In this document: positions 3,336 through 19,380 of the stretch, piece by piece
Layout of the letters: each line of letters opens with the position of its first letter
How positions within the stretch are numbered: position 1 is the stretch's first letter
From: Candidatus Auribacterota bacterium
Lineage (GTDB): Bacteria > Auribacterota > Tritonobacteria > UBA1439
Length of the DNA: 21,107 nucleotides
Direction of reading: 5' to 3'
Assembly (NCBI GenBank): GCA_026392015.1
Contig: JAPLCW010000146.1
Location: 1-21,107 of the forward strand
Notes under the pieces: model-generated
Told to the model about the DNA's origin: nothing
The model's input: only the letters and a program-made list of their open reading frames with translations
Databases searched by the model: none
Translations under genes and position numbers: made by a program

Positions 3336-3503
3336 ATGAGAATTGAATCCATTATGCGCATATTCCGAAAGAAATGCCCGCGGTGTTCTGACGGGAGGCT
3401 GCGATCAAAAGCTTGGATTCGGGCAACTGCGCTACTGAAGAAGGTGCGCGCTATCCTGACTCATGGACCTACTATGAATGCGATCGATGCGGATCTAGGT
3501 TAA
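3336..3503 (+). CDS. Small ORF with a CPRC motif, possibly the 5' part of a frameshifted zinc-ribbon gene that continues in the +1 frame to 3573 (..YYECDRCGS..)
   Basis: GGGGGAG ribosome-binding site 7 nt upstream of the ATG. CPRC is in frame 0 and CxxC (CDRC) in the overlapping +1 frame ending TAA at 3571-3573; together they would form a classic 4-Cys ribbon. Confidence 0.3.
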   Translation: MRIESIMRIFRKKCPRCSDGRLRSKAWIRATALLKKVRAILTHGPTMNAIDADLG

Positions 3504-3689
3504 AGATAGGCAATAATGGCAGAATTGAAGACCCAAGTGAAAAGGAATGGGTACAGAATTACCAAACAGAAAGGGCCGTTTAACAAGACCTTGGAGCGTG
3601 CGCAGTACACTGTGCCCCCTGGGGCCGGTAGAAAAGACGTTTTGATCAAAAGAGTGCCAGAATAGGCAGAATCATTGAATCAGGCAGAG

Positions 3690-3946
3690 AATCAGGGAAA
3701 AACTTGGGACGCATAAACGGAATAAGGCCGGGGCGGTAGAATGATTTACCATCCACCTGATAGCATTGAGAAGGTATTAGATAAGATGCGCCAGGATTTG
3801 AGAAAGACAGAGCCGTGCTTCTGTGATAAGTGCCGTCCTTTATTCCACGGTTTTTTAAACGGTGGTTTGAGAGATAGCCGGATAAGTAGGAGCGGGAAGC
3901 CAGTTTATATTATAAGGAAACAATCAAGCCAAAGGAGGGGATAAAG
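3690..3946 (+). promoter_or_regulatory. 'U' 5' element copy 1: TATA-like CATATAAACGG, small-ORF region, GGAAGCC(G/A)GTTTATAT box and AAGGAGGG ribosome-binding site
   Basis: Shares 75-90% nucleotide identity with the other U copies listed below. Confidence 0.55.
3741..3944 (+). CDS. Small conserved ORF inside the U element (MIYHPPDSIEKVLDKM..CFCDKCRPLF..); this copy has an ATG but a 1-nt deletion changes the C-terminus
   Basis: Peptide IEK.LDK.HKEL.KAE.CFCDKCRPLF..F.KRWFK.YPDK is recoverable from 7 copies. An ATG lies about 23 nt downstream of a TATAAA-like box, consistent with a leaderless transcript. No copy is fully intact. Confidence 0.3.
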   Translation: MIYHPPDSIEKVLDKMRQDLRKTEPCFCDKCRPLFHGFLNGGLRDSRISRSGKPVYIIRKQSSQRRG

Positions 3947-4780
3947 ATGAGAGCAACATTAGTGGTAGTTGCAAACGTGATGTTGATGGCGGGTTTGTGC
4001 GGCACGATGATAGCGGGGAGTATTGATTCACCCGGCGCGCCATCAGCGGGAAGCGGGATGTATACACTCTCTCAGATATATGATTACATGAACTCGGGGA
4101 TAGACGTAACACCTATACCAAGTTTCCAAGAACCCGCCGTGGCTCCCGGACCGACGATGAAGACCACGAAGCAGATTTACGAGGACATCAAGGCGAAATT
4201 TGCCCAGTGCAACGCGACTGCCGATGTTGTGATGCCGGGCTATACGTTTTTCTGCACGCAGCCGGGGAGTTGGGGAGTACAAACGGGAAACTATGTAACC
4301 CCAACCCCAACCTCAACGCCAACCCTAACCCCGACCATAACCCCCTCACCCACCCCAACTATAACTCCAACCTGCCCAACCGGTGACCCTTGGTATGTGC
4401 AATATGGACCGTGTGGGGAGGGTAAAGTGGTTCTGATAGGGAGCATGTACGTTGCCAAGTGGACAAATAATGAGGGCACCGCAAGCAACGAGAGAAAGGG
4501 TTGGCCCGCCGCCCGCCAATGGGCCACCGGACTAGACTGGTTAGGCAAGGACTCTGGATGGAGGCTTCCGACGGATATTGAAATAGCCTCCATATGTGAG
4601 GCCAAGTCTAGCCTGGGCGCGTACGAGGCTGAGACCCGCCCATATTACTGGTCCGACACCCAGCGCGACTCCGCGTCGGCCAACTGGATCGAGGACTTCT
4701 CTAGGCCTGTGGATTGCACCGTGCAGAGCGGCAACTGGGTCGACACTAACCGCGTGCGCGCCGTGCGTAATGCAATGTGA
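3947..4780 (+). CDS. Secreted modular paralog: N-module subtype II, PT linker, DUF1566/Lcl-C-terminal-like domain
   Basis: Signal peptide MRATLVVVANVMLMAGLCGTMIAG|S. Motifs GWRLPTDIEIASI..YYWSDT..VRAVRNAM. AAGGAGGG ribosome-binding site 6 nt upstream. Stop is TGA. Confidence 0.85.
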   Translation: MRATLVVVANVMLMAGLCGTMIAGSIDSPGAPSAGSGMYTLSQIYDYMNSGIDVTPIPSFQEPAVAPGPTMKTTKQIYEDIKAKFAQCNATADVVMPGYTFFCTQPGSWGVQTGNYVTPTPTSTPTLTPTITPSPTPTITPTCPTGDPWYVQYGPCGEGKVVLIGSMYVAKWTNNEGTASNERKGWPAARQWATGLDWLGKDSGWRLPTDIEIASICEAKSSLGAYEAETRPYYWSDTQRDSASANWIEDFSRPVDCTVQSGNWVDTNRVRAVRNAM

Positions 4781-4861
4781 ACAATTTGATCCATGCTGCC
4801 CTCGCGAAGGCGGCTGCAGCGGGTCAAGTTTGATTTCTCCGTTCGGTACGGCAGGTCGGCG

Positions 4862-4946
4862 GACGCGAAGCGCATGCCATCTGCGGAGATAACTCCGAAA
4901 TTTCTCTGGAGAAGATCCGTGATTTTATCGTAAACAAATAATGAGG
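4862..4946 (+). repeat. 'D' 3' element copy 1 (first hairpin degenerate; second hairpin and the ATTTTATCGTAAACAAATAATGAGG tail intact)
   Basis: Aligns to the consensus seen after each paralog. Confidence 0.6.
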
Positions 4947-5220
4947 AAAGAATAGAGCAGAATCAGGCAAATGATAAGGGCATATAAACGGAATAAGGCC
5001 GGGGCGATAGCATAATTTGCCGTCCATCTGAAATCATTGAGAAGGTACTAGACAAGATACACAAGGAGCTACAGAAGGCAGAGGTATGCTTCTGTGATAA
5101 GTGCCGTCCTTTGTTTCAGAAGTTTATCAAACGCTGGTTTAAGAGATACCCGGACAAGTAAGAGTTGGAAAGCCGGTTTATATATAAAGGGAAACAAGCA
5201 AACCAAAGGAGGGCGGAAAG
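4947..5220 (+). promoter_or_regulatory. 'U' 5' element copy 2 (small ORF lacks an ATG: ATA)
   Basis: Conserved sequence. TTTATATATA at 5177-5186. Ribosome-binding site AAGGAGGG at 5206-5213. Confidence 0.55.
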
Positions 5221-6033
5221 ATGAGAGCAACATTAGTGGTAATTTTAAGCGTGATGTTTGCGGCGGGTTTGTGCGGTACGGTGGTTGCGGGGAGTATTGA
5301 TTCACCCGGGTTGCCCACGGCGGGGAGCGGGATGTACACGCTCCAGAACCTGTATGACTACCTTACGAGCGGCACGGCGCTCATGGTGCAGACCAGTTTC
5401 CAGGAGCCCGCCTCGGGCCCCGGCTCGACGATGAAGAGCACGAAGGAGATCGGTGACGCGATCAAAGATAAGTTCAACCTGTGCGCTGCCACAACCGATA
5501 ATGTTGAACAGGGAGTGACTTTCTTCTGCACGCAGCCGGGAAGCTGGGGAGTTCAGACAGGAACATTAGTTGCGCTGCCGAGACCGACAGCAACCCCAAC
5601 CTCAACCGCAACCCCAACCGCAACCCCAACGCCGACGTGGGGCCAGACCAGATGCGAGGCGAAGGGCGGCTTGTGGGCACCGCTAAATGGCGGGCTAGTG
5701 GGGAATGGCTGCTGGTTCAAAGCGGCATTTCAGGAAAACTGCAGCGCGGCTTGTGGAGCCCTTACCCTAGGATGTGATACGAGACAGTGGAACGACAACG
5801 GGACTGTAACTTGCAGCATTATGAGGCAATTAGGGCCCAGTACTTGCTCATTCTGTCAGTCTGGGGGTTCTTCAATGGGCGACACATCATCTCCGGCGAT
5901 TGGGACGTCGTACTGGGAAGGGACTGGATGCATCTATCGGCCGGACTCAGTCAGCCAGGCATGCGATGCTACTATAAACACGAGTGACGCTAATTGGGGC
6001 AAACGGATCTGCGTCTGCAACCCTGAGCCGTAG
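5221..6033 (+). CDS. Secreted modular paralog: N-module subtype I, PT linker, Cys-rich C-terminal domain (type A)
   Basis: Signal peptide. SGMYTLQNLYDYLTSG..FFCTQPGSWGVQTG. (TPT)n linker. About 16 Cys in the C-terminal 130 aa. Stop is TAG. Confidence 0.85.
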   Translation: MRATLVVILSVMFAAGLCGTVVAGSIDSPGLPTAGSGMYTLQNLYDYLTSGTALMVQTSFQEPASGPGSTMKSTKEIGDAIKDKFNLCAATTDNVEQGVTFFCTQPGSWGVQTGTLVALPRPTATPTSTATPTATPTPTWGQTRCEAKGGLWAPLNGGLVGNGCWFKAAFQENCSAACGALTLGCDTRQWNDNGTVTCSIMRQLGPSTCSFCQSGGSSMGDTSSPAIGTSYWEGTGCIYRPDSVSQACDATINTSDANWGKRICVCNPEP

Positions 6034-6150
6034 ACTCTATCATCTGAATCATCCGCGGGTGGGCGGGCGCTATGCGCTTTCCCACCTGCGGAGATAACTC
6101 CGGATCTTCTCTGGAGAAGATCAGTGATTTTATCGTAAGTAAATAATAAG
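6034..6150 (+). repeat. 'D' 3' element copy 2: hairpin 1 (6053-6091, CCGCGGGTGGG..CCCACCTGCGG), hairpin 2 (6103-6122, GATCTTCTC-TG-GAGAAGATC), T-rich tail
   Basis: Perfect inverted repeats read directly from the sequence. Confidence 0.7.
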
Positions 6151-6258
6151 TTGGAGTAGGGCATAGCCAGAGAAGCAGGGAGAGTAAGATCAAGGCGAGG
6201 GCATAATTTTCGATGGTGGAATCAAGAGAGTGGGCTGTTGTTTACCGTAGCCGGGACT

Positions 6259-6284
6259 GTAGCCGATACTTAAGTATCGGCTAC
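6259..6284. repeat. Perfect 26-nt palindrome GTAGCCGATACTTAAGTATCGGCTAC in the spacer between D2 and U3
   Basis: The 11-nt arms are exact reverse complements around TTAA. A partial direct copy GTAGCCGGG lies just upstream. Confidence 0.6.
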
Positions 6285-6317
6285 AATATCTATCATAAAT
6301 CTTAAAAAGCCCACACT

Positions 6318-6541
6318 TTTTCTTGCATGATCTAATTTTCTGTCCGCCTAAAAGCATTGAGAAGGTACGAGACAAGATGCACAAGGAACCAGACAAGCTA
6401 GAGGCGTGCTTCTGTGATTAGTGCCATCCATTATTCCGCAGGTTTATCAAAAGCTGGTTTAAGAGATACCCGGACAAGTAGGAACTGGAAAGCCGGTTTA
6501 TATATTATAAGGAAACAATCAAACCAAAGGAGGGAATGAAG
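6318..6541 (+). promoter_or_regulatory. 'U' 5' element copy 3 (small ORF carries an in-frame TAG at 6419-6421, where other copies have AAG)
   Basis: Conserved sequence. TTTATATATTATAAGG box. Ribosome-binding site AAGGAGGGAATGAAG. Confidence 0.5.
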
Positions 6542-7345
6542 ATGAGAACAACATTAGTGGTAATTTTAAGTGTGATGTTAATGGCGGGTGTGTGCGGCAT
6601 GGTGGTTGCGGGGAGTATTGATTCCCCCGGCGCGCCTTCTGCGGGAAGCGGGATGTACACGCTCCAGAACCTGTATGATTACCTGACGAGCGGCACTGCG
6701 CTCACGGTGCAGACCAGTTTCCAGGAGCCCACGTCAGGTCCCGGCTCAACGATGAAAACCACAAAACAGATCGGGGATGCCATCGCAACATCATTTGCCT
6801 TGTGCGATGCGACTGCCGACAAAGTAGCGAGCGGCACGAGGTTCTTCAGCACGGTGCCGGGAAGCTGGGGTGTGCAGACGGGGACATTAGTTGTAGTGCC
6901 AACCCCAACCCCGACCATAACTCCCACCATAACCCCAACCCCGACCATAACCCCAACCGCAACGCCAACAGTCCCTGCATATTGTTCCTCCGCTAACGGC
7001 TACTGGGCCCCGAAGAATGATGGCTCGGGAGAGAGCGGGTGTTGGATTAAGGGGGCTGTCGCCACCAGCTGTAACACAGCGTGCAACTCAAAAGGGTTGA
7101 AATGCGACCAAGTGAATTTTAACGACCCCGAGTGTTCAATAATACCAAATATACCTGGAGCTTTTCCGTGCAGCACTTGCGGGGGGTCGCTGACATACGG
7201 CAACGCCGTGCAAGCGATCCAGGGGTGTGGAAGCTGTGGAGGGTCGGGGGCGTGTCGCGTGAATCCCGCCGGGACCGCGCAGGACTGTTCAGCAACCTTC
7301 ACCGACACTAACTGGTATCTGCTTTGCGTCTGTATTCCCAACTGA
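6542..7345 (+). CDS. Secreted modular paralog: N-module subtype I, PT linker, Cys-rich C-terminal domain (type A')
   Basis: The N-terminal 120 aa are about 85% identical to the 5221 gene and nearly identical to the 9104(-) gene. An alternative ATG lies at 6536. Stop is TGA. Confidence 0.85.
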   Translation: MRTTLVVILSVMLMAGVCGMVVAGSIDSPGAPSAGSGMYTLQNLYDYLTSGTALTVQTSFQEPTSGPGSTMKTTKQIGDAIATSFALCDATADKVASGTRFFSTVPGSWGVQTGTLVVVPTPTPTITPTITPTPTITPTATPTVPAYCSSANGYWAPKNDGSGESGCWIKGAVATSCNTACNSKGLKCDQVNFNDPECSIIPNIPGAFPCSTCGGSLTYGNAVQAIQGCGSCGGSGACRVNPAGTAQDCSATFTDTNWYLLCVCIPN

Positions 7346-7452
7346 CCAGATGATCATCCGCGGGTGGGAGGGCGTTGCGCGCCTTCCCACCTGCGGAGAT
7401 AACTCAGGATCTTCTCTGGAGAAGATAGGTGATTTTATCGCAAGCAATAATC
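7346..7452 (+). repeat. 'D' 3' element copy 3
   Basis: Both hairpins are present. The 3' flank GGAGTAGGGCATAGCCAGAGAAGC is shared with D2, which suggests recent duplication. Confidence 0.7.
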
Positions 7453-7881
7453 AATGGAAGTAGGGCATAGCCAGAGAAGCGAAGACCCTAAGCGAAGTCG
7501 AAGAGACCTTGTCGAAGTAAGGGCAAGGGTGGGGGGGCTCTATCCCCCAAGACTGACAGTAGTGACTCAATTTGGATGCCTTTGATTTGTAGAGGTTCGA
7601 CGAACTTGTCCTGAGAGAAGCCGAAGGATCAAGCCCCTACAACATAGAATAGTTATATTCTGTATGTAATAGAGACACTGCCAGACTGACCCAGTACCGC
7701 TATTCAGGACGCAGATGAACGCAGAGCACGCAGGTACAAAAATGGTTCGAAGTGAAAATCCCAAGTCTGAAAGCTGCTGTTTTGCTAATCTTAATCTGCG
7801 TTATCCGCGGAATCCGCGTCCCAATAAATTGGGCGGGAGTGGTGATTGGGCTATTTTGCACAATGAAAGGAAGGTGGCAAG

Positions 7882-8820
7882 ATGAAAAGGTTGATGACAG
7901 TAACGTTTGGTGTGATCCTTGCGTCAGGTGTGGGCGGGATGGCAGTCGGTGGGAACATTGACTCCTCTGGCGCGCCTTCATCGGGCAGCGGAATGTATTC
8001 GCTCTCTCAAATCTATGACTATCTGAACTCGGGGACAGCGGCAACCATTCCCGGAAGCTTTCAGGAACCCGGAGCAGCACCCAGTTCGACGCTGAAGACA
8101 ACGAAGGAAATCTACGACGACATCAAGGCGAAGTTGGACCTGTGCGCAACCACCACCGCAGCGCATGTGAAAGCGGGCCAGTTATTCTTCTGCACGCAGC
8201 CGGGGAGCTGGGGTGTCCAGACGGGAACGCTCATTGTACCGCCGACACCGACACCTACGATAACACCCACAATAACGCCATTGCCAATTCTCGCATCCTG
8301 TAAAGCCATTAAAACAGCGATTCCTGGAGCAGAAAGCGGAACCTATACCATTGACCCGGATGGTTCGGGAGGGAATGCCCCCTTCCAGGCTTACTGCGAC
8401 ATGACCTCTGATGGTGGAGGATGGACTCTGGTAGTCCGGGTGGTGAACGATAGAATCCACTGCAACTCATCTGCGGCCGGCACACTCACCTCGCAGACGC
8501 AGGCCAACTCTGCCAAATTATCGGATGCGGTCATTAACGAAATTTCGACCGACTACTACAGGTTTACATGCGGATCCGTTACCAACTGGTTCGATGCTAT
8601 TGAAAAGACATTCCAGGCCGATGGGACCGGCGATACGACTATCACAAAGGCAAAAGCGACCGGGATCGAGGGTACGTGGTGCTACGGCCCCACCGTAGCG
8701 AGCGAAGGGGGACTCCGCAACGCCGCATGTTCGCCGACAAGCGTTTATGGGCACGTATCACTCGGCGGATGCTATGATTCGACGATCTGGGGGGCATCGG
8801 GATATATGTTCGCGCGTTGA
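7882..8820 (+). CDS. Secreted modular paralog: N-module subtype II, PT linker, fibrinogen-related-domain (FReD)-like C-terminal domain
   Basis: SCKAIKTAIPGAESGTYTIDPDGSGGNAPFQAYCDMTSDGGGWTLVVR matches the signature of the N-terminal half of fibrinogen C-terminal domains. It has a different upstream region (no U element) with a GGAAGGTGG ribosome-binding site. Stop is TGA. Confidence 0.8.
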   Translation: MKRLMTVTFGVILASGVGGMAVGGNIDSSGAPSSGSGMYSLSQIYDYLNSGTAATIPGSFQEPGAAPSSTLKTTKEIYDDIKAKLDLCATTTAAHVKAGQLFFCTQPGSWGVQTGTLIVPPTPTPTITPTITPLPILASCKAIKTAIPGAESGTYTIDPDGSGGNAPFQAYCDMTSDGGGWTLVVRVVNDRIHCNSSAAGTLTSQTQANSAKLSDAVINEISTDYYRFTCGSVTNWFDAIEKTFQADGTGDTTITKAKATGIEGTWCYGPTVASEGGLRNAACSPTSVYGHVSLGGCYDSTIWGASGYMFAR

Positions 8821-8984
8821 AGCGGCGCGAGAGTTTGCCGTGTTTTCCCGGGTGAAGCGGGGGCGATAGCCGCGCGTCGGATAGAGGTGGCGAAAGGGCT
8901 ATTATCATGAAGGCGATCCCGCGATGCAGGATTGGCCTGCTATGCTAGCCGTCGCGGGTCAGGGCATGCGGTATCCTCATCGCT

Positions 8985-9093
8985 CCCTGCCATCGGCGGA
9001 TTTAACCTCGGATCTTCTTACGCGAAGACTCGGAGTTATCTCCACCGGTGGGAAAGCGCAGAGCGCCCGCCCACCTGCGGATAGTAGTCATAT
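8985..9093 (-). repeat. 'D' 3' element copy 4 in reverse orientation, downstream of the minus-strand paralog
   Basis: The reverse complement matches the D consensus, including both hairpins. Confidence 0.65.
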
Positions 9094-9103
9094 TGTGTTT
9101 CCT

Positions 9104-10048
9104 CTACCTCGTGTAAAGGTACCCATCCTGGTCACCCGCAATACCCGGTAATATGCATCCGAAATAATCATCATATGCCCCATATATAGTCTTTGCCCCG
9201 GTGCCCGGTTGCCCATTACTCGTGACAAGAGCGGTACAATTTGATGGGTGGCAGTTGGATTCCGTTACGAATTCCCCAGTATAGGTCGTTTTATATTTCA
9301 TGATACCTGCTGTGCAGATACTTGTCGCATTAAAATCTTTGCCCGCTGCATCGAAGTAACACGACTTTATAGTGGTGTTGCCGCACGATAAACGATAGAT
9401 TTCGCTAGATATAGCATTTATTGACGCGTCAGACAGTTTCGCCGTGTCCGCCTGATCTGGCGCAGTTAGAGTGCCCACCGATGCTGTATCTATGTGCAGC
9501 CTGTTAGTTCCCTTCATCCTGACGACCAATGTCCACCCGCCGCCGTCATTGGTCATGTCGCAGTAGGCCGAGAAGGGAGCATTCCCACCGGAACCATCGG
9601 GGTCAATGGTGTAGGTGCCGTTGCCTGCAGAAGGAGTGGCCGTAAGAATTGCTTTACAGGATGCGTAAATACCATATGGGGTTGGAGTTGGCGGTACAAC
9701 TAATGTTCCCGTCTGCACCCCCCATCTTCCCGGCACCGTGCTGAAGAACTTCGTGCCACTCGCTACTTTGTCGGCAGTCGCGTCGCACATGGCAAATGAC
9801 GTCGCGACGGCATCACCGATCTGTTTTGTGGTTCTCATCGTTGATCCGGGCCCTGACGTGGGCTCCTGGAAACTGGTCTGCACCGTGAGCGCGGTGCCGC
9901 TCGTCAGGAAATCGTACAGGTTCTGGAGCGTATACATCCCGCTCCCCGCCGAAGGGGCCCCCGGAGAGTCAAGGCTCCCGGCAACAGCCACGCATGACAG
10001 GCCAACCATAAAAATCAAACTCAGAGCTACTGTGATTAACTTTTTCAT
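9104..10048 (-). CDS. Secreted modular paralog (inverted orientation): N-module subtype I, PT linker, FReD-like C-terminal domain; mosaic of the 6542-type N-terminus and 7882-type C-terminus
   Basis: Start chosen at MKKLITVALSLIFMVGLSCVAVAG (AAAGGA ribosome-binding site). YTIDPDGSGGNAPFSAYCDMTNDGGGWTLVVRM. Stop is TAG. Confidence 0.8.
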   Translation of the reverse strand: MKKLITVALSLIFMVGLSCVAVAGSLDSPGAPSAGSGMYTLQNLYDFLTSGTALTVQTSFQEPTSGPGSTMRTTKQIGDAVATSFAMCDATADKVASGTKFFSTVPGRWGVQTGTLVVPPTPTPYGIYASCKAILTATPSAGNGTYTIDPDGSGGNAPFSAYCDMTNDGGGWTLVVRMKGTNRLHIDTASVGTLTAPDQADTAKLSDASINAISSEIYRLSCGNTTIKSCYFDAAGKDFNATSICTAGIMKYKTTYTGEFVTESNCHPSNCTALVTSNGQPGTGAKTIYGAYDDYFGCILPGIAGDQDGYLYTR

Positions 10049-10104
10049 TTTGGTACCAATCCTTTCTTGATTCATTTTGAATTTGATAAAAGCGCGATTG
10101 CCAC

Positions 10105-10121
10105 GTCCCGCTCAGCGGGAC
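10105..10121 (-). terminator. Hairpin GTCCCGC-TCA-GCGGGAC downstream of the 10146-10967(-) gene; on the minus strand it is followed by a ..GCGCTTTTATC T-run or TATA-like box
   Basis: 7-bp perfect stem. T-rich tract 13 nt downstream on the minus strand. Confidence 0.4.
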
Positions 10122-10145
10122 TACAGCACTCGCGATGCAAAAGGA

Positions 10146-10967
10146 TCAGATACCTACCGGCGGGGCGCGGATGGGAGAAAGTTTGGCAAGACTGCTTCTA
10201 TAAACCGGCATATCGCAACACCGGATACGTGCACAGGAATCATCTTTTCCAATCCTTGGCAAAAAGACTGTCCAGGCATCATTGTCATATCTCTCGTGGC
10301 TGTTGCTCATCCCTGTTACGGAAACACAGCCGCCGGATATTTCAGAATCATCCGCGCCGCCCGAAAGCCTGCTCCTTGATTCATCCCCGATCTCTTTCCA
10401 AGGACCGGGATCTGTTTTCGCGAGATACTGCACGGTCCGGCCGGGCCCGAAATGCATCCATCCTGCGTTCTCTCCCCACGCATAGCCGTCAAACTGGCCG
10501 GTCTCATCCAGGTATACTCGCGAATGACTTGTGCGGAAGCTGACCCAGCCCGTAACTTCGGACCAGGCAAATCCTGACAGCTTGCCATGTCCATCGTTGT
10601 TGACTCCCCAGTCAGAGGAGCCCCGGTTGGAGTAGTGTTCCCCGTTCAGAGGATGGCCTTCGCCGAGACTCACCCAGCCGCAGTTCTCAAGCCATATCCA
10701 CCCCACCAATATATTCGAGCCGATCTTTAAGTCTGCATGTGTCGTCCTGAGATTTACCCACCCTGCGTTCTCCCCCCAGATCACGTCATAACCCGCTACG
10801 ATTCTGCCAGTCTTCGGTATGGCAACACCCGATTGCGGAATGCTGTCACTTCTTTCCGAGTTGGGGAAGAATGGAAAATCATAGCACTGAGGAAAGGGAG
10901 GATGTGCGGGTATGGCATTGGCAGTGGAGGCTGCGAAGAGGGCTAAGGCAAAGATAATTAGAGTCAT
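10146..10967 (-). CDS. Secreted repeat protein with tandem ~25-30-aa repeats carrying a G-W-[VIM]-x-[LF] motif (GENAGWVNL, ENCGWVSLG, AWSEVTGWVSF, AWGENAGWMHFG); family not assigned
   Basis: N-terminal signal peptide MTLIIFALALFAASTANA. Internal repeats are visible in the translation. The overlapping plus-strand ORFs lack features. Confidence 0.65.
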   Translation of the reverse strand: MTLIIFALALFAASTANAIPAHPPFPQCYDFPFFPNSERSDSIPQSGVAIPKTGRIVAGYDVIWGENAGWVNLRTTHADLKIGSNILVGWIWLENCGWVSLGEGHPLNGEHYSNRGSSDWGVNNDGHGKLSGFAWSEVTGWVSFRTSHSRVYLDETGQFDGYAWGENAGWMHFGPGRTVQYLAKTDPGPWKEIGDESRSRLSGGADDSEISGGCVSVTGMSNSHERYDNDAWTVFLPRIGKDDSCARIRCCDMPVYRSSLAKLSPIRAPPVGI

Positions 10968-11236
10968 AATATTTCCCGCAGGGGTGATAAAATCAACACG
11001 ACTACAATAACCCTTGATACATATACCTGCATATTCTGTGCCAACTTTACAATTTTTCCTTCATTAGTGAAAAATAGTTGTAATTGCTACGAGGCGAAGT
11101 AGTTGCAACTATATGCGCAAAGATACAGATTTTAAATGCATCCTAAAAAGCCCAATCTGCATACTTAGTTTATACCTCCGAGAGCCAAAAGTGTAAACTT
11201 ACTTTATGTCCGCGCTTGTACATGTCCGCGCTTGTA

Positions 11237-11458
11237 TATTGTAATACCAGCTAAATTCTGCTATCATCGAGAAACGAGTAGCGGGTTATATCGAGGAGAG
11301 TGATCGCTTACATACAGATCCGAAAAAGCAAACCTTAGAAAACTTAGGGGCACAAAGCCACGGGTCTAAATCCCGCCGTAGCGGGACAAGATGGCCGGAC
11401 TGCCGAAGATCTCTAATGAGATAAGAGGTAGTTCGGCTTTTTTATAGTTGGGGAAGGA
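11237..11458 (+). promoter_or_regulatory. Conserved 'A' element copy 2 (see 447-675)
   Basis: About 80% identical to copy 1. Hairpin GCCGAAG..ATCTC-TAAT-GAGAT..TTCGGC followed by T6. Lies about 340 nt upstream of the 11798 gene. Confidence 0.4.
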
Positions 11459-11797
11459 TATACTCCTGTAGTGCGTTTCCGGGGTCAAATCTTTATCCTT
11501 GAATTTTAGAAGGCAGGACAGCTTTCCGGCAGTTTGATGTAAATTGATTCTGGCGCAAAGTGCTGGGTCAGCGTGAGAAAGAGTGTAGCTTAAGTTTGTG
11601 CTTCATACTATTCAAGCCGCGGAGGTACGGAAAGGGCGGGGATGCAACGTGACATTGTTATTGCATTCTTTGCGCTTGATTCTGGCTACCCCCTGCTTCT
11701 CGGGAGGCAGGTCGGGCAGGCCCAAAGGGCATGGTTTCTGCGGTGGAATATATCATTCACCACTATTGCGGCCAAAAGAGAAAGGAGAGTTGAAAAG

Positions 11798-12598
11798 ATG
11801 AAAAAGTTGATGACGTTAGTGTTAGCTTTGATGTTTGCGGTCGGCCTGGCCGGTATGGCCATAGCCGGCAGTCTTGATTCACCCGGCGCCCCATCAGGCG
11901 GAAGCGGTATGTATACGCTCTCGCAAGTATATGATTACTTGAACTCGGGAATAAAGGCAACACCTGTCTCCGGTTTTCAGGAACCCGGCGCAGCCCCTGG
12001 TCCGACGATGAAGAGCACAAGGGAGATCTACGAGAGCATCGAGGCCAAATTTGACCAGTGCCCCGCCACTACTGCTAATGTGGAGTCAGGAGTGAAGTTC
12101 TTCTGCCATGTATCGGGAAGATGGGGAGTGCAGACAGGAACCGGGTTAATGCAGCCAACCCCAACCATAACCCCAACCATAACCCAAACCCCAACCATAA
12201 CCCCAACACCAGCCCCAACCATGACCTCAACCCCATGGGGATATCCTGATGTAGTCGTGATAGGTGGTATGTATGTTGCGAGCGATAAGGATGGTCTTGG
12301 ATGTGCGGGAGGTGGATCGAAAAATTGGACTGAGGCCGCATCCTGGGCAGAGGGCTTGGAGTGGTTAGGGGCGACGGACTGGAGAATGCCTACTGGGGGT
12401 GCGGGAGGAGAGCTGTCGACGATATGTGAGTACAGAAGTAGTTTAGGATCTTATTATACAAACTATTATTGGTCTGCCACTGAACTTTCCACATCGCTTG
12501 CGTGGGCAGTTTATACCTCTGAGGATCAATGGATGTGTGTTGTCTTCAATAACGATAAAAACGGACCATACCATGTACGTGCGGTTCGTACCAGATAA
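11798..12598 (+). CDS. Secreted modular paralog: N-module subtype II, PT linker, DUF1566/Lcl-C-terminal-like domain
   Basis: The real start is at MKKLMTLVLALMFAVGLAGMAIAG (ribosome-binding site GAAAGGAGAG); the track ORF from 11642 is an upstream extension. DWRMPT..ELSTICE..YYWSATE..VRAVRTR. Stop is TAA. Confidence 0.85.
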   Translation: MKKLMTLVLALMFAVGLAGMAIAGSLDSPGAPSGGSGMYTLSQVYDYLNSGIKATPVSGFQEPGAAPGPTMKSTREIYESIEAKFDQCPATTANVESGVKFFCHVSGRWGVQTGTGLMQPTPTITPTITQTPTITPTPAPTMTSTPWGYPDVVVIGGMYVASDKDGLGCAGGGSKNWTEAASWAEGLEWLGATDWRMPTGGAGGELSTICEYRSSLGSYYTNYYWSATELSTSLAWAVYTSEDQWMCVVFNNDKNGPYHVRAVRTR

Positions 12599-12721
12599 TA
12601 GATCATGCGGATCAAATTCGCAGTCCTTCCCCAATGGGGATTCAGAATTTGTGCAAGTCATAACAATCATTCATTTTCAATTTATTTTTTGGGTTATGGT
12701 TATATTGCATGACAACATGAT

Positions 12722-12836
12722 TTGACTATCCGCAGTTGGGCGGGCGTTGCGCGCTTTCCCATCTGCGGAGATAACTCCGGATCTTCTCTGGAGAAGATCA
12801 GTGATTTTATGTAAGCAAATAATGAGTGGGAGTAAG
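12722..12836 (+). repeat. 'D' 3' element copy 5
   Basis: Both hairpins are present (CCGCAGTTGGG..CCCATCTGCGG shows G-T and T-G changes that keep pairing with wobbles). Confidence 0.7.
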
Positions 12837-12884
12837 GCGGTCTTGTGGTGAAAGTTGAGCTGAGTATCCGGGCGGCGGCGATTC

Positions 12885-13040
12885 CCGGCGATACGGAAAA
12901 GTCCGGGCTCACCCAATACAAGGTACCCCCCCGACCAAGTGGGGTATATGTAATATGACAACGGTGATATACACATACTCTCTTACTCAAACACCGGGGG
13001 CAAGGACAAAAGGTATGGGAAAAGGAAGTGATGCGATGAG
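12885..13040 (+). repeat. 'E' element copy 1 (~150-nt conserved non-coding repeat: ACGGAAAAG.CCGGGCTCACCCAATACAAGGTACCCCCCCGACCAAG.GGGGTATATGTAATATG.CAACGGTGATATACAC...CAGACACCGGGGG..GATGGACAAAAGGTA.TGGGAAAGGAAG)
   Basis: Three copies: here, 18005-18165 and 19245-19380. Confidence 0.5.
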
Positions 13041-13058
13041 CTATCCATTTCGCTCTGT

Positions 13059-13099
13059 CTCAGGATGGCCCCGCCATTCGGCGGGCCAAGGATCCTGAG
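13059..13099 (+). promoter_or_regulatory. Long imperfect hairpin (CTCAGGAT-GGCCCCGCC-ATTC-GGCGGGCC-AAGG-ATCCTGAG) abutting a TTTATATA box, upstream of the 13208 gene
   Basis: Reverse-complement arms read from the sequence. TTTATATA at 13100-13107. Confidence 0.4.
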
Positions 13100-13207
13100 T
13101 TTATATACACATGGGCACTCGTGTCCAATTAGTAATAAAGGATCACCGATAATTTGGACGGGAGTGGGAAACAGGCCGGATGCGCACAATGAGAGGAAGG
13201 TGGAAAG

Positions 13208-14236
13208 ATGAAAAGGTTGATGACGTTAGTGTTAGGTTTGCTGTTCGCGATTGGGTTGGGCGGAATGGCCGTTGCCGGGAGTATTGATTCAACGGGTGCT
13301 CCCTCATCAGGGAGCGGGATGTACACGCTCCAGAATCTGTATGACTATCTGACGAGCGGCGCGGCGCTGACGGTGCAGACAAGTTTCCAGGAGCCCACGT
13401 CAGGGCCCGGATCAACGATGAATAGCACGAAGGAGATCGGTGACACGATCGCGGGTAAGTTCAGCCAGTGCAATGTAACCGCTGCCCATGTTGAGTCAGG
13501 CTGGACGTTCTTCTGCACGCAGTCGGGAAGCTGGGGAGTGCAGACGGGTACCGGGTTAATGCAGCCAACCATAACCCCAACCCCAACCATAACCCCAACC
13601 CCAACCATAAATATCGCATCCTGTAAAACCATTAAAACTGCAATTCCTGCTTCAGTCGACGGCGTCTACACCATTGACCCCGATGGTCAGGGGGTCGGGA
13701 GTGATCCCTTCTCGGCCTACTGCGACATGACCACCGGCGGCGGCGGCTGGACCCTTGCCGCGTTTAGAGGTTCTGGCGTAACTAATGGTGACACTTTCTC
13801 TAAACATGGGGCAGTCGTGACTAATTTCGGGGAATCTCAGTCATCCGGAGATTGGTCACTCGATATATGCAACAACAAAATCAACGAAGGTGCCGACTAC
13901 AGCGAAATGGTAATAACTTCAGGTATAACAGAAAGCCATATTATAAATGGATTTACGTACGCATGGTTTTTCTCTTTTAATGGGACATACAAGATTAGCG
14001 TGGACTGGGGCACCATCAATGAAGTTGGGACTTACGGTTGGAAATGTAGCGCTGGCGAAGGGTATACATCATCGAGCGCATGGCATAGTGCGGCGAATAC
14101 CTGGAGAACCGATGCAGGGGGGGGGCAGTGGATTACGGGGATGGAGACTGGTACAGGAGGTATTCTGTATTGGACAGTTTGTAGTGGTGCGGCTCCTCAG
14201 GGTTGGGAGCATCCGGGATATTTCTGGGTTCGCTGA
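13208..14236 (+). CDS. Secreted modular paralog: N-module subtype I, PT linker, FReD-like C-terminal domain (longer C-terminal extension)
   Basis: SCKTIKTAIPASVDGVYTIDPDGQGVGSDPFSAYCDMTTGGGGWTLAAFR. GGAAGGTGG ribosome-binding site. Stop is TGA. Confidence 0.82.
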   Translation: MKRLMTLVLGLLFAIGLGGMAVAGSIDSTGAPSSGSGMYTLQNLYDYLTSGAALTVQTSFQEPTSGPGSTMNSTKEIGDTIAGKFSQCNVTAAHVESGWTFFCTQSGSWGVQTGTGLMQPTITPTPTITPTPTINIASCKTIKTAIPASVDGVYTIDPDGQGVGSDPFSAYCDMTTGGGGWTLAAFRGSGVTNGDTFSKHGAVVTNFGESQSSGDWSLDICNNKINEGADYSEMVITSGITESHIINGFTYAWFFSFNGTYKISVDWGTINEVGTYGWKCSAGEGYTSSSAWHSAANTWRTDAGGGQWITGMETGTGGILYWTVCSGAAPQGWEHPGYFWVR

Positions 14237-14237
14237 T

Positions 14238-14382
14238 ATGGCCGCAGATTTGATCCGTTTTAGCCGTTGCCGGCAAGGGAGTGCAGTTTTCGAATTGCTC
14301 CCTGTCGGCGTCGGAGATAACTCCGGATCTTCTCTGGAGAAGATCAGTGATTTTATCGTAAACAAATAATGAGGGAAGGATA
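14238..14382 (+). repeat. 'D' 3' element copy 6 (hairpin 1 diverged, hairpin 2 and tail intact)
   Basis: Alignment to the consensus. Confidence 0.6.
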
Positions 14383-14626
14383 GAGCAGGATCACGGAATA
14401 GTACAGGGGCGATAGCATAATTTGCCGTCCACCTGAAAACATTGAGAAGGCACTAGACAAGATGCACAAGGAGCTAGAGAATGCAGAGGTATGCTTCGGT
14501 GATAAGTGCCGTCCTTTGTTTCATAGGTTTATCAAACGCTGGTTTAAGAGATACCCGGACAAGTAGGAGTTGGAGAGCCGGTTTATATATTACAAGGAAA
14601 TAATCAAACCAAAGGGGGGAGTACAG
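14383..14626 (+). promoter_or_regulatory. 'U' 5' element copy 4 (small-ORF peptide NIEKALDKMHKELENAEVCFGDKCRPLFHRFIKRWFKRYPDK; no ATG)
   Basis: Conserved sequence. TTTATATATTACAAGG. Ribosome-binding site AAGGGGGG. Confidence 0.55.
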
Positions 14627-15625
14627 ATGAGAACAACATTAGTGGTGGTTGTAAGCGTGATGTTTGCGGTCGGCCTGAGCGGAATGGCAGTTGCCGGGAG
14701 CATGGATTCCCCCGGCGCCCCATCATTGGGAAGCGGGATGTACACGCTCCAGAACCTGTACGACTACCTGACGAGCGGCGACGCGCTCAGCGTTGCCGGA
14801 GATTTCCAGGAGCCGAGCGCAGCTCCGGGCTCAACGATGAAGAGCACAAAGGAGATCGGCGACGCGATCAAAGCGTTATTCGAGCAGTGCCCCGTCATGG
14901 CTGACAACGTTGAGTCGGGCGTAAAATTTTTCTGCACCCAGCCGGGAAGCTGGGGAGTGCGGACGGGGACATTGGTTGCGCTGCCGAGGCCGACAGCAAC
15001 ACCAACGGTAACGCCGACAGCAACGTGGGCCTGCGGATCAACATTTACGGATTCAAGGGACGGCAAAGTATACAGCACCGTCCTGATCGGATCCCAATGC
15101 TGGATGAAGCAGAACCTGAATGTGGGAACAAGAATTGACACGGCGACCGATCAAGGTACCAGTTGTTCTTCAATACAGAAGTACTGCCGTGATAACCTCG
15201 AATCCGGGTGCGAAACATATGGAGGTCATTACCAGATGCCACAGGCTATGTGTGGATCAACAGAACCAGGCACCCAGGGCATATGCTTCGATGGATGGCA
15301 TGTTGCTACAGAAGCTGAGTGGTGTACATTACTCCACAGTTTAGATTCCACAGTGGTGTGTGGTTCGTGGGAAGGTCGCATCGGTACTAATGTAGGTACT
15401 AAATTGATGTTGTCTGGCCCAAATGATTTCTCAGAGATACTAGCGGGGTTACGGATAGCGGGGGGCTCGTTCGTCAACCTGGGTTCGGGTTATTTTCCAA
15501 GTTCGAATTTAAGGGGGGACGGCATGCATCGGCACATCGAAAACGATCCCCCAACGGGAGCTAATGTAGGAATACAAACCTGCCCACTGTCATTTGGCGA
15601 ATCCATCAGATGCCTCAGGGACTGA
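14627..15625 (+). CDS. Secreted modular paralog: N-module subtype I, PT linker, Fibrobacter-succinogenes-major-paralogous (FISUMP)-like C-terminal domain
   Basis: CGSTFTDSRDGKVYSTVLIGSQCWMKQNLNVGT matches the characteristic FISUMP opening motif. Stop is TGA. Confidence 0.82.
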   Translation: MRTTLVVVVSVMFAVGLSGMAVAGSMDSPGAPSLGSGMYTLQNLYDYLTSGDALSVAGDFQEPSAAPGSTMKSTKEIGDAIKALFEQCPVMADNVESGVKFFCTQPGSWGVRTGTLVALPRPTATPTVTPTATWACGSTFTDSRDGKVYSTVLIGSQCWMKQNLNVGTRIDTATDQGTSCSSIQKYCRDNLESGCETYGGHYQMPQAMCGSTEPGTQGICFDGWHVATEAEWCTLLHSLDSTVVCGSWEGRIGTNVGTKLMLSGPNDFSEILAGLRIAGGSFVNLGSGYFPSSNLRGDGMHRHIENDPPTGANVGIQTCPLSFGESIRCLRD

Positions 15626-15636
15626 GATTCGACAAT

Positions 15637-15742
15637 TTGACTATCTGCGGGTGGGCGGGCGCTGTGCGCTTTCCCACCTGCGGCGATAACTCCGGATCTT
15701 CTCTGGAGAAGATCAGTGATTTTATCGTAAACAAATAATGAG
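15637..15742 (+). repeat. 'D' 3' element copy 7
   Basis: Both hairpins perfect. Confidence 0.7.
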
Positions 15743-16018
15743 CGGAGGCTAGGCGCAGAATCAGGAAAGAAATAGGAGCATATAAACGGAATAAGGCAGG
15801 CGCTACAGCATGATAACCGACCACCTGACGACATTGAGAAGGCACTGGACAAGCTCCACAAGGAACTACAGAAGGCAGAGGTATGCTTCTGTGACAAGTG
15901 CCGTTCTTTGTTTCATAGGTTTGTTAAACGCTGGTTTAAGAAGTACCCGGACAAGTAGGAGCTGGAAAGCCGGTTTATGTATAATAAGGAAACAATCAAA
16001 CCAAAGGAGGGAGTAAAG
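15743..16018 (+). promoter_or_regulatory. 'U' 5' element copy 5 (small ORF out of frame relative to its ATG)
   Basis: Conserved sequence, TATA-like boxes, ribosome-binding site AAGGAGGG. Confidence 0.55.
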
Positions 16019-16807
16019 ATGAGAACAACATTAGTGGTGGTTGTAAGCGTGATGTTTTCGGTCGGGATGGCCGGAATGGCCGTTGCCGGGAGTATTGATT
16101 CACCCGGTGCGCCATCAGCGGGAAGCGGGATGTACTCACTCACGCAGGTCTATGACTACCTGAATTCGGGGATAGAGGTAACGCCTGTCCCAAGTTTTCA
16201 GGAACCAAGCTCAGCCCCTGGCTCGACGATGAAGACGCTGAAGGATATCTACGATGACCTCAGGGCGAAGTATATCCAATGCACTGTGACAGCTGACAAG
16301 GTTAAGTCAGGGGAGAAGTTCTTTTGCACGCAGCCGGGAAGATGGGGAGTGCAGACAGGGACGGCGTATATACCCCCAACCCCAACCCCAACCTCAATCC
16401 CAACTCCAACCCCAACAAAAACCTTTTACGAGCAATACGGCCCGCCACCTGGGGAGGATAAAGTGGTGCACATAGGGAGCATGTATGTTGCCAAGTGGAC
16501 GGATAATGAAGGCACCGCTATGAACGATGGAAAAATCTGGACCGTTGCCTGTTCCTGGGGTACCGATCTAGTATGGTTGGGTAAGGATGACTGGAGGCTG
16601 CCGACGAAAGATGAGCTAATCAGTATATGTACGAATAGGGGGAGCTTAGGCGCATATCACGATGTGGTTAGATATTGGTCCTCCACTGCATATGATGAAA
16701 GTTTCGCGTGGTCAACGTGGTTTTCCGTTGCTGATGGTTGTGCAACCGATCATGATGCCGATAAACCATCCGGGCGGTTTATCCGAGCAGTCCGGAATGC
16801 CGATTAA
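16019..16807 (+). CDS. Secreted modular paralog: N-module subtype II, PT linker, DUF1566/Lcl-C-terminal-like domain
   Basis: DWRLPTKDELISICTNRGSLGAY..RYWSSTAYD..IRAVRNAD. Stop is TAA. Confidence 0.85.
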   Translation: MRTTLVVVVSVMFSVGMAGMAVAGSIDSPGAPSAGSGMYSLTQVYDYLNSGIEVTPVPSFQEPSSAPGSTMKTLKDIYDDLRAKYIQCTVTADKVKSGEKFFCTQPGRWGVQTGTAYIPPTPTPTSIPTPTPTKTFYEQYGPPPGEDKVVHIGSMYVAKWTDNEGTAMNDGKIWTVACSWGTDLVWLGKDDWRLPTKDELISICTNRGSLGAYHDVVRYWSSTAYDESFAWSTWFSVADGCATDHDADKPSGRFIRAVRNAD

Positions 16808-16817
16808 CTGGCGTTTG

Positions 16818-16928
16818 ACATTTTGACTATTCGCAGGTGGGCGGGCGCTGCGCGATTTCCCACCTGCGGAGGTAACTCTTGATCTTCTCTGGAGAAGATC
16901 AGTGATTTTATCGTAAACAAATAATGAG
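16818..16928 (+). repeat. 'D' 3' element copy 8
   Basis: Both hairpins present. Confidence 0.7.
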
Positions 16929-17181
16929 GGAAAGATAGAGCAGGACCACGGAATAGTACCGGGGCGATACCATGATTTACCGCCCATCTGATACCATTGA
17001 GAAGGCACTAGCCAAGATGCACAATGAGATAGAGAAAGCAGAGGCGTGCTTCTGTGACAAGTGCCGTCCGTTGTTTTAGAGGTTTATCAAACGCTGGTTT
17101 GAGAAGTACCCGGACAAGCAGGAGTTGGAAAGCCAGTCTATATATTATAGGGAAACAATTAAACCAAAGAAGGAGGGAAGG
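16929..17181 (+). promoter_or_regulatory. 'U' 5' element copy 6 (small ORF with ATG at 16972, in-frame TAG at 17077-17079, terminal TAG replaced by CAG so the frame runs into the next gene)
   Basis: Conserved sequence. TCTATATATTATAGGG. Ribosome-binding site AAGAAGGAGGGAAGG. Confidence 0.5.
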
Positions 17182-17931
17182 ATGAGAGCAAAATTAGTGG
17201 TAGTTGTAAGCGTGATGTTGATGGCGGGCCTGTGCAGCATGGTGGTTGCGGGGAGTCTTGACTCACCGGGAGCTCCGTCGGCGGGGAGCGGGATGTACAC
17301 GCTTCAGCAGGTGTATGACTATTTGTATGCGGGGACGGTGCCGACAATTCCCGAGAGTTTCTAGGAGCCGATCGCGGGTCCTGTTTCTACGATGAAGACT
17401 ACAAAACAGATAGTGGAGGCCGTTGCAACGCCGTTCGCCCAGTGCTCCGCTACGGCTGCTGATGTTAAATCAGGCGTGAATTTTTTCTCCACGGTGTCGG
17501 GGAGCTGGGGAGTGGCGACGGGAACCATGGCACTCACAGGAAATGCCGTAGCTGCTGATGTGATAAGCGGTAAGAATTTCTACTCCAATTCCTGGACACA
17601 GCAGACTGGGACGTTAACCCAGTATCCCGCAACTCCAAGCGGCTGGAGCGGTGCCTGCGTCTGGAAAGAAGGAAATTTTACGCAACAGGATTGTATAGAC
17701 CTTGGATATCCAAATAGGCATACAAGGGAGGTGTGCACGTCCTACGGTATTTCGGGAGGTGGAGCAAGTATATGGGCGTATGGCGGTTGTTCAAACTCAT
17801 GCACGGGTCCGGGTTGTTCTTCTTCCGTAACGTATGTATCCGGGAACTGTTGTGGGGTGTTTACATGCTCCAACTCAGCAGGCGTTGGAGTTTGTGTGGC
17901 CTCCAGTATATACACATACTGCTGCAAATAA
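17182..17931 (+). pseudogene. Modular paralog interrupted by a single in-frame TAG at 17362-17364 (within the conserved SFQEP motif, where all paralogs have CAG); Cys-rich C-terminal domain type B
   Basis: ORFs 17125-17364 and 17392-17931 are in the same frame. ..PESF*EPIAGPVSTMKTTKQI..FFSTVSGSWGVATG continues the family alignment. The PT linker is replaced by a different segment. Confidence 0.7.
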
Positions 17932-18004: not shown

Positions 18005-18165
18005 CCCGGCGAGACGGAAAAGACCGGGCTCACCCAATACAAGGTACCCCCCCGACCAAGCGGGGTATATGTAATATGGCAACGGTGATATACACTCTCG
18101 CAGTCAGACACCGGGGGTGGATGGACAAAAGGTACTGGGAAAGGAAGCAGATATGCAGAGGATCG
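18005..18165 (+). repeat. 'E' element copy 2
   Basis: About 85% identical to 12885-13040. Confidence 0.5.
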
Positions 18166-19225: not shown

Positions 19226-19244
19226 GAAGCCGTAAGCATCCAGC

Positions 19245-19380
19245 TAACCCAGCCCACCGACACCCCTACAAGGGGGCAGAGTAATATACGGCATGGTGTT
19301 ACATACTCTCTTAGTCAGACACCAGGGGGTTGATGGACAAAAGGTACTGGGATAGGAAGTGATAGTGTATTACGTTAATA
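19245..19380 (+). repeat. 'E' element copy 3 (5' part diverged)
   Basis: Core ATACTCTCTTAGTCAGACACCAGGGGGTTGATGGACAAAAGGTACTGGGATAGGAAGTGAT is conserved. Confidence 0.45.

Follow-up and report, generated by a model that had tools for sequence, protein, structure and literature searches.

Tandem genes for secreted proteins with a shared N-terminal module and varied, mostly lectin-like heads in an Auribacterota genome

Here we describe a tandem array of ten paralogous genes, g1 to g10, at positions 3947–17931 of a 21,107-bp contig (hereafter "the window", i.e., the whole stretch of DNA analyzed) from the metagenome-assembled genome (MAG) "Candidatus Aureabacteria bacterium" (phylum Auribacterota, PVC group; locus tags NTZ78_093xx). 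Nine of the genes lie on the plus strand and g5 lies on the minus strand. We read the region, with a probability of roughly 55%, as a tandem group within a large family of stalked surface lectins, expanded in this lineage and resembling the Legionella protein Lcl, whose members would share one attachment module and would have been diversified by recombination between paralogues.

Ten genes with one module and five types of head

A first-pass annotation had proposed that ten genes share a signal peptide, an N-terminal module and a linker, followed by interchangeable C-terminal domains of binding type (hereafter "heads"). This anatomy was upheld, and all ten genes were found at the starts proposed for them. 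Each opens with a Sec-type signal peptide (e.g., MRTTLVVILSVMLMAGVCGMVVAG/S, the slash marking the predicted cleavage site), which is followed by a module of ~92 residues. A Pro/Thr (PT) linker encoded by 6-, 12-, or 18-nt DNA repeats then leads to the head in g1–g9. The linker thus proved common to nine genes only: g10 has none, and the last hairpin motif of its module is duplicated in its place.

The heads were compared with Pfam and NCBIfam profile hidden Markov models and with sequences in the PDB. DUF1566/Lcl_C heads were expected in g1 (3947–4780, plus strand; module at 4016–4291, SQIYDY subtype), g6 (11798–12598, plus; module at 11867–12142, SQVYDY), and g9 (16019–16807, plus; module at 16088–16363, TQVYDY), and this was borne out: g6 and g9 scored 36.4 and 35.4 bits against Lcl_C (PF07603), above the gathering cut-off of 34.9, and g1 reached 29.6 bits, under that cut-off, yet its head is 76% identical to that of g9 at the DNA level. 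The single PDB match of these heads was HbP1 (8q4e, E = 0.0013). In Lcl itself, the domain has a C-type-lectin-like fold and makes up a trimeric head with affinity for sulfated glycans. The assignment of fibrinogen-related (FReD-like) heads to g4 (7882–8820, plus; module at 7951–8229, SQIYDY), g5 (9104–10048, minus; module at 9704–9979, QNLYDY; short PT linker), and g7 (13208–14236, plus; module at 13277–13552, QNLYDY) was likewise supported, with 29.7, 25.2, and 25.5 bits, respectively, against Fibrinogen_C (PF00147; cut-off 22) and 81.5, 84.9, and 72.2 bits against GGGWT_bact (NF040941; cut-off 30). The fibrinogen match is confined to the first 40–80 residues (profile positions 14–52, up to 90 in g7), and the whole ~220-residue fibrinogen domain, with subdomains A, B, and P and the ligand site, was not matched by g4, g5, or g7. 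Their best PDB relatives were intelectins, tenascin, FGL1, and ficolins, in each case over query residues 4–60 only, i.e., the YCDM..GGGWT region. Following NCBI usage, these predicted heads are best named fibrinogen-like/GGGWT. For g8 (14627–15625, plus; module at 14696–14971), the FISUMP head predicted earlier matched TIGR02145 over its full length (82 bits vs. 41.65; positions 1–176 of 176) and PF09603 (48.7 bits vs. 33.9).

The remaining heads are Cys-rich and had been lumped into one class, which gave four C-terminal domains in all. Part of this grouping stood: the heads of g2 (5221–6033, plus; module at 5290–5565, QNLYDY) and g3 (6542–7345, plus; module at 6611–6886) are homologous to each other (E = 1e-15) and to nine representatives of the wider family described below, and form type A (CysA). 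The head of g10 (17182–17931, plus; module at 17251–17526) is unrelated to them and constitutes a type B; both types have relatives of their own in the wider family, so that the window holds five head types instead of four. No Pfam family matched the g2 head, a word-indexed search with the CysA head returned nothing, and CysA relatives were detectable only among representatives of the module family. Overall, three of the five head types (DUF1566/Lcl_C, fibrinogen/intelectin-like, and FISUMP) belong, judging by these profile matches, to glycan-binding or adhesin-type families.

The last gene is probably no longer functional. The module of g10 contains an in-frame TAG codon at 17362–17364 (SF*EP), where its paralogues have CAG or CAA (SFQEP). 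Because g2 and g5 terminate with TAG, this codon is a genuine stop in the organism, and g10 is therefore a probable pseudogene or a stub of 60 aa.

A small domain outside the curated families

The module consensus reads GS[IL]DSPGAPSxGSGMYTL..[IL]YDYL.SG...FQEP..PG.TMK..K.I......F..C.AT...V..G..FF....G.WGVQTG, and 21 columns were invariant across an alignment of 19 sequences (nine copies from the window and ten from databases). As the first-pass annotation had suspected, the module fits no family that can be named: it matched no Pfam or NCBIfam family and no PDB sequence, and we found neither a PHROG family match nor a relative in IMG/VR. The structure prediction proposed at that stage was made with AF2 and gave two helices and a β-hairpin (pLDDT 77.5), a model which no PDB fold matches.

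This is an autonomous domain rather than a leader, since it is also present at protein C-termini, e.g., after the head and PT linker of a laminin G (LamG) protein from the same MAG, and stands behind a PT linker in P0114, P0116, P0131, P0132, P0108, and P0117. The module can thus sit at either terminus. Separately, Desulfobacterota relatives (L010, L014, L016, L017, and P0125) have many successive copies of the module's final hairpin motif (A.DVL.GK.F.....G...GTMP) ahead of a DUF1566 head, in proteins of up to 1666 aa, so that the C-terminal hairpin of the module is the first unit of a fiber-like repeat.

Paralogues are mosaics of exchanged parts

Signal peptides, modules, and heads group the ten genes in mutually incongruent ways. 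By signal-peptide DNA the groups are g1, g2, g3, and g10; g8 and g9; g4, g6, and g7; and g5 by itself. By the first half of the module, g1, g4, g6, and g9 are set against g2, g3, g5, g7, and g8, and the heads group differently again. In a pairwise homoplasy index (PHI) test on the 351-nt signal-plus-module alignment, the observed value was 0.663 against 0.732 ± 0.008 in 2000 permutations, none of which was as low (p < 0.0005).

Identity between individual pairs changes in sharp steps. The g3 and g5 genes are 83–100% identical over module windows starting at +100 to +340, 33–66% identical in the 5′ flank and the start of the signal peptide, and mostly 46–70% identical in their heads. In g8 and g9, the upstream flank (U) and signal peptide are 83–96% identical (91–97% for the signal peptide of g9 compared to that of g8) and the downstream hairpin flank (D) 80–93%, with different module subtypes and unrelated heads in between. 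One linker start is common to g2 and g8 and another to g6 and g7; the identity of the latter pair at the DNA level, noted previously, is real and spans 21 nt encoding GTGLMQPT. Exact identity runs for up to 41 nt within the module and up to 58 nt within D, and stretches of this length are sufficient for homologous recombination. In addition, the modules of g3 and g5 are inverted repeats of each other (353 nt, 86% identity), and an inversion between them would trade a CysA head for a FReD head.

Taken together, recombination has swapped parts among the paralogues, and its breakpoints fall within the module, where the linker begins, and within D, in agreement with the proposal that module, linker, and flanks are the sites of exchange. 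The claim that subtypes and C-terminal domains are combined in all directions is true of FReD heads in the window, which occur with both module subtypes, and of the wider family, where both subtypes occur with CysA, DUF1566, FISUMP, FReD, and LamG heads; within the window, FReD is the only such head, and DUF1566 is found with the SQIYDY subtype only.

The further claim of a dedicated combinatorial cassette system found no support. The window contains no recombinase, invertase, or reverse transcriptase open reading frame (ORF) and no promoterless or truncated silent cassettes. All ten copies are individually equipped with a start codon, a signal peptide, and a Shine-Dalgarno sequence, and g1–g9 also with terminator hairpins of their own. 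The mosaicism fits ordinary homologous recombination or gene conversion between paralogues over evolutionary time.

A GW-repeat gene adjoins module genes

At 97 nt upstream of g5 and on the same (minus) strand lies a gene (10146–10967) for a 273-aa protein with a signal peptide and four to five β-hairpin repeats of the form WGENxGW..F (GW repeats). Members of this GW-repeat family begin their mature part with PFPQC and have a nearly invariant ..P.Y(I)..L..L.PIRAPP.. motif 2–4 residues from the C-terminus, which may be a sorting or processing signal. The entire C-terminal 100 residues are predicted to be disordered, and the protein matched no Pfam or NCBIfam family and no PDB sequence.

Profile searches of 50 loci placed a GW domain directly next to a module gene in most loci with enough flanking sequence (L001, L004, L009, L010, L015, L017–L019, L033, L036, L039, L043, L047, and L048), with both Auribacterota and Desulfobacterota represented. 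The spacer between g5 and the GW gene is 90% identical in one of them (L018). The same MAG, for which genome-wide counts are based on locus tags and names, encodes at least 46 GW paralogues of 60–78% identity, some of which flank module genes (GW 07000, module 07005, and GW 07010; GW 07775 and module 07780; GW 15190 and module 15195). GW domains also occur 2–4 times in giant proteins nearby. From this gene order, the GW protein is the probable functional partner of the module proteins; the conserved linkage is the strongest clue to function, and on its basis we propose that the module docks to GW domains.

As a separate observation (L018, 4327–7822), the GW and module pair of this related metagenome contig is immediately followed by genes of a type II secretion or type IV pilus kind (MshEN, T2SSE, and T2SSF) and by those for a sigma-54 activator and a PAS histidine kinase. 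Cyclic di-GMP (c-di-GMP) is the ligand of MshEN receptor domains.

A family dispersed across genomes and phyla

A word-indexed homologue search with the module returned short fragments only, and an exhaustive profile search was needed to reveal the family: in public data, 1129 cluster representatives matched at E ≤ 1e-3 and 127 at E ≤ 1e-30. Among the top 145 representatives, Pfam matches included Lcl_C (37), Fibrinogen_C (17), Laminin_G_3 (12), and Fib_succ_major (6), as well as DUF2341, Gly_rich_2, RCC1, EGF, and others. Their C-terminal regions fell into 19 similarity clusters, of which ten had at least two members and nine were single sequences; by this clustering, the module is joined to at least ten recurrent head families in public data.

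Matches in genomes came from Auribacterota (Ca. Tritonobacter lacicola) and Desulfobacterota (Desulfobacteraceae and Desulfatiglandales). There, the head is nearly always DUF1566, at times behind long runs of the hairpin motif; the head variety described here is a feature of the lineage of the window. Tandem arrays recur elsewhere, e.g., seven module-plus-DUF1566 genes in L008 and a GW gene with four module genes in L009. The array studied here is only one local group of genes from a family whose members are scattered through the genome and over several phyla. Our literature search found no paper describing the module, the GW domain, or the array.

Flanks and transcription units

The non-coding flanks of the genes had been described as near-identical, which holds in part. 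The D flank follows g1–g9 and is missing after g10, and the U flank precedes six genes (g1, g2, g3, g8, g9, and g10) and is missing before the other four, g4 included. D comprises a GC-rich hairpin of ~18 bp, then a hairpin of 8–10 bp and a T tract, an arrangement that makes it a probable terminator; it folds much better than shuffled sequence, with z-scores of −3.3 to −5.8. Taking the copy at 15644–15725 (plus strand) as reference, further copies lie at 4877–4928, 6052–6133, 7357–7438, 8990–9090, 12729–12810, 14305–14356, and 16830–16911, with that at 8990–9090 common to the convergent g4 and g5 and serving both strands. On other metagenome contigs, D elements with 85–94% identity are found 3′ of module genes. 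Each gene looks like a separate transcription unit.

Copies of U lie at 3688–3946 (plus strand, before g1), 4959–5220, ~6290–6541, 14364–14626, 15756–16018, and 16919–17181 (before g2, g3, g8, g9, and g10, respectively). U contains a small ORF of ~49 codons (MIYRP..CFCDKCRPLF..YPDK*; MIYRP..IEKALDKMHKEL..CFCDKCRPLFHRFIKRWFKRYPDK*), then the Shine-Dalgarno sequence of the module gene. A seventh, orphan copy at ~19017–19264, which has an internal stop in the small ORF and is not followed by a module gene, may be the trace of an array member since deleted; it sits between a 93-aa ORF of no family (18718–18999) and an SPFH/Band-7 gene (19545–20483). The small ORF is discernible in all seven copies and is damaged in each (loss of ATG, frameshift, or internal stop). 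It matched no Pfam, NCBIfam, or PHROG family and no viral contig, and is absent from related loci. A live small gene or an N-terminal extension was ruled out on these grounds, and we treat U as a putative relic or leader sequence. The TAG codon of g10 and the conserved TAG after YPDK in U had also raised the possibility that TAG is decoded as glutamine, which was ruled out by the TAG stops of g2 and g5 and by a TAA at the same place in the U copy of g2.

The window has further small features. A 56-aa ORF (3413–3583, plus strand) just 5′ of the first U copy has two CxxC pairs and a weak DUF7129 zinc-ribbon match (E = 3.9e-4, under the cut-off). A 91-nt repeat, 96% identical, occurs between g6 and g7 (12884–12974) and just after g10 (18005–18095), and its minus strand contains a hairpin resembling a terminator. 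Another direct repeat, of 58 nt and 78% identity, is located 3′ of the SPFH gene (20592–20649 and 20848–20905).

A c-di-GMP riboswitch before g6 and a subtilase gene

The leader of g6 contains a c-di-GMP-I riboswitch aptamer (RF01051; 11317–11407, plus strand) scoring 57.6 bits against a gathering score of 35, followed at ~11400–11445 by a terminator-like hairpin (GCCGAA...TTCGGCTTTTTT). A weaker copy (537–624, plus strand; 31 bits, below the cut-off of 35) lies in the leader of an S8 subtilase gene (679–3246, plus strand). The two riboswitch copies are 82–87% identical and the subtilase leader as a whole is 82% identical to that of g6. Because a terminator hairpin competes for the 3′ strand of the aptamer in both leaders, their arrangement suggests ligand-dependent antitermination.

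The promoter-plus-riboswitch leader is duplicated (441–633 and 11231–11416, in blocks of 79–87% identity). In the copy on the g6 side, the start codon of the subtilase is lost (ATG to ATA) and ~350 nt of other sequence precede g6. A 16-nt perfect tandem duplication (two copies of ATGTCCGCGCTTGTAC) stands at 11206–11236. The subtilase itself has a Pro/Thr/Ser linker at approximately residues 560–590 and a C-terminal region of ~270 residues without Pfam match. The possible control of the subtilase and of the PT-stalked, adhesin-like g6 by one signal is reminiscent of the pair of ZmpI and an adhesin in C. difficile.

Interpretation and alternative readings

Under our preferred reading as stalked surface lectins, the shared module would attach or assemble each protein on the cell exterior, for which docking to a GW-repeat partner is the likeliest means, and the PT stalk would keep the ligand-binding head distant from the cell. 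A single type of mount would then allow the organism to present many binding specificities. New combinations of module and head would arise through ordinary homologous recombination or gene conversion, and possibly through an inversion at the g3 and g5 modules, which lie in opposite orientations, with no dedicated machinery implied. Expression of g6 would be turned on by c-di-GMP through the antitermination riboswitch, which would tie the family to a surface-attached lifestyle.

Several observations weigh against this reading. Signal-peptide cleavage and surface location are predictions from the protein sequences, and the case for module anchoring and for a module–GW link is one of synteny. 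The window has ten module genes for one GW gene, and four loci with long flanks (L008, L011, L014, and L016) have none, so that a 1:1 partnership is not required. The structure model of the GW protein was unusable (pLDDT 44.6), and that of the module is of medium confidence, with one of five models above pLDDT 60 and an alignment of only 19 sequences. The heads of five genes, covering three of the five types, are only putatively binding ones, because the fibrinogen-like match covers the first quarter of the domain and both Cys-rich heads are without assigned function. Finally, no riboswitch was found in ten related loci, and c-di-GMP control is thus not general in the family.

Three other readings assign the module a different or a wider role. 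We tentatively entertain an extension of the preferred reading, in which module and GW domain would together make up a bacterial "dock-and-display" system not described before. Lectin-like heads by the dozen, attached through PT stalks to either end of the module, would dock on GW domains, single in small secreted proteins and 2–4 times in giant surface proteins. This would create a multivalent binding surface that can be reconfigured, a lectin counterpart of the cellulosome, expanded in one Auribacterota genome to at least 46 loci and shared with Desulfobacterota, and head exchange would give new specificities. It is also conceivable, if rather doubtful, that the proteins are soluble, secreted, multivalent lectins comparable to collectins, ficolins, and intelectins, whose module would be an oligomerization domain instead of an anchor and which would agglutinate or coat particles or other cells. 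The FReD/intelectin-like and C-type-lectin-like heads, the small helical module with its hairpin, the recurrence of the motif A.DV..G..F......G.TGT in long, fiber-like relatives (L010, L014, and P0125), and the trimeric state of Lcl itself would all suit such lectins, which however leave the conserved GW-gene adjacency unexplained. That same adjacency would be accounted for if the module served as a tag by which a secretion or sorting pathway recognizes its substrates and the GW protein were the cognate chaperone or export component, with no role in attachment; the type II secretion or type IV pilus genes beside the L018 pair and the export of Lcl by a type II secretion system (T2SS) point the same way. 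We nevertheless regard a tag as improbable: the module occurs at either protein end and always behind an ordinary Sec signal peptide, T2SS adjacency is limited to one locus, and the GW protein, with its own signal peptide and with GW domains present 2–4 times in giant proteins of extracellular type, fits a scaffold better than an export component.

The remaining readings concern the origin of head diversity. A programmed cassette or antigenic-variation system, in which special machinery would frequently bring new heads to the module among the cells of one population, could draw on the conserved flanks, the sharp identity breakpoints, and the inverted repeat whose inversion would swap Cys-rich and FReD heads, as well as on related contigs where the gene 3′ of the GW gene has a FReD head in L019 and a CysA head in L018. 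We consider it unlikely, since the window lacks any invertase, recombinase, or reverse transcriptase and the copies are whole, separately terminated genes instead of silent cassettes. Exchanges also look old, because the paralogues are mostly 55–90% identical as opposed to near-identical, and L018 and L019 may be paralogous loci and not orthologues, given at least 46 GW paralogues. Least probable by far is an origin as targets of a diversity-generating retroelement (DGR) or as phage-derived receptor-binding proteins. DUF1566 and Fib_succ_major domains are repeatedly found as targets of DGRs (PMC4159848, PMC5758913), phage fibers typically pair a constant N-terminus with variable C-termini, and a group II intron fragment is present at 64–140; yet the window contains neither a reverse transcriptase ORF nor a pair of template and variable repeats, the positions at which the g1 and g9 heads differ are not biased towards adenines, the module is without PHROG match or IMG/VR relative, and the proteins bear Sec signal peptides. 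The DGR and phage readings were both dropped. The intron fragment itself is a match to domains V/VI (RF00029, plus strand; 43.7 bits vs. 40) at the extreme start of the contig, and any intron ORF would lie upstream of the window.

Significance and comparison with known systems

Overall, these results point to a modular multigene family of surface lectins or adhesins diversified by paralogue recombination and built on two undescribed domains, with a real chance that it represents a new display system. To our knowledge, nothing has been established experimentally on how members of the uncultured phylum Auribacterota (PVC group) interact with their surroundings. The array shows that one Auribacterota genome invests heavily in secreted proteins built like animal innate-immune lectins or Lcl, with new combinations made by whole-head swaps. 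Two domains beyond curated families and solved structures are defined here, namely the module, for which public data contain 1129 clusters, and the domain of GW repeats. If docking proves true, the module–GW pair would constitute a new principle of surface display and a possible engineering scaffold; if it proves false, the family would still be a clear natural example of domain shuffling with visible breakpoints.

Among systems that vary a C-terminal region, polymorphic toxins, contact-dependent inhibition (CDI) and Rhs proteins, and cassettes of the pilS/vls type are also arranged in tandem and keep their N-terminal region constant as the C-termini vary, with recombination where the constant and variable parts meet. 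Unlike polymorphic toxin and CDI loci, the heads here are lectin-type or Cys-rich and not toxins, and no immunity genes are present, the spacers containing only D hairpins and the decayed ORF relic of U, which is alike in every spacer. Unlike the silent cassettes of pilE/pilS and vlsE, the array has no truncated or promoterless copy and no single expression site. DUF1566 and FISUMP domains have been reported as DGR variable proteins of the C-type-lectin type (PMC4159848, PMC5758913), and the paralogous families of FISUMP (TIGR02145) and DUF1566 proteins, like DGR target proteins, have head domains and multi-copy paralogy in common with the array; the window has no DGR, however, and its diversity comes from whole-head exchange instead of binding-site mutagenesis.

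In its use of one mount for many heads, the family recalls the dockerin–cohesin pairs of cellulosomes, in which many enzymes have a common docking module for the repeated cohesins of scaffoldins and where one small module is likewise joined through PT-type linkers to many unrelated domains and at either terminus; the parallel extends to the candidate partner, since GW domains are encoded nearby and also 2–4 times in giant proteins. The two systems have no sequence similarity (neither the module nor the GW protein has a Pfam match), the cargo here consists of putative binding domains and not enzymes, and the interaction is purely hypothetical. The collectins, ficolins, and intelectins of animals, which consist of an oligomerizing N-terminal region, a stalk, and a C-type-lectin or fibrinogen-related head, follow the same design logic and have two head superfamilies in common with the array, g4, g5, and g7 matching FReDs of intelectin, tenascin, and ficolin; in contrast, the N-terminal region and stalk are non-homologous, and the FReD is recognizable over the first ~55 residues only.

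The closest characterized protein is Lcl of Legionella pneumophila, which has an N-terminal anchor and trimer helix, a collagen stalk, and a DUF1566 head, is secreted by the T2SS, and is located on the surface (PMC11162425). The array proteins are likewise predicted to be secreted and consist of a short element at the N-terminus, a long stalk of low complexity, and, in g1, g6, and g9, a C-terminal DUF1566/Lcl_C head, i.e., a "lollipop" layout. They differ from Lcl in that the stalk is Pro/Thr-rich and not collagen-like, and the N-terminal element is a 92-aa module predicted to fold and unrelated to the 30-residue Lcl-N helix. They differ further in that the same mount here bears four other head types, is present in dozens of gene copies, and is linked to GW genes.

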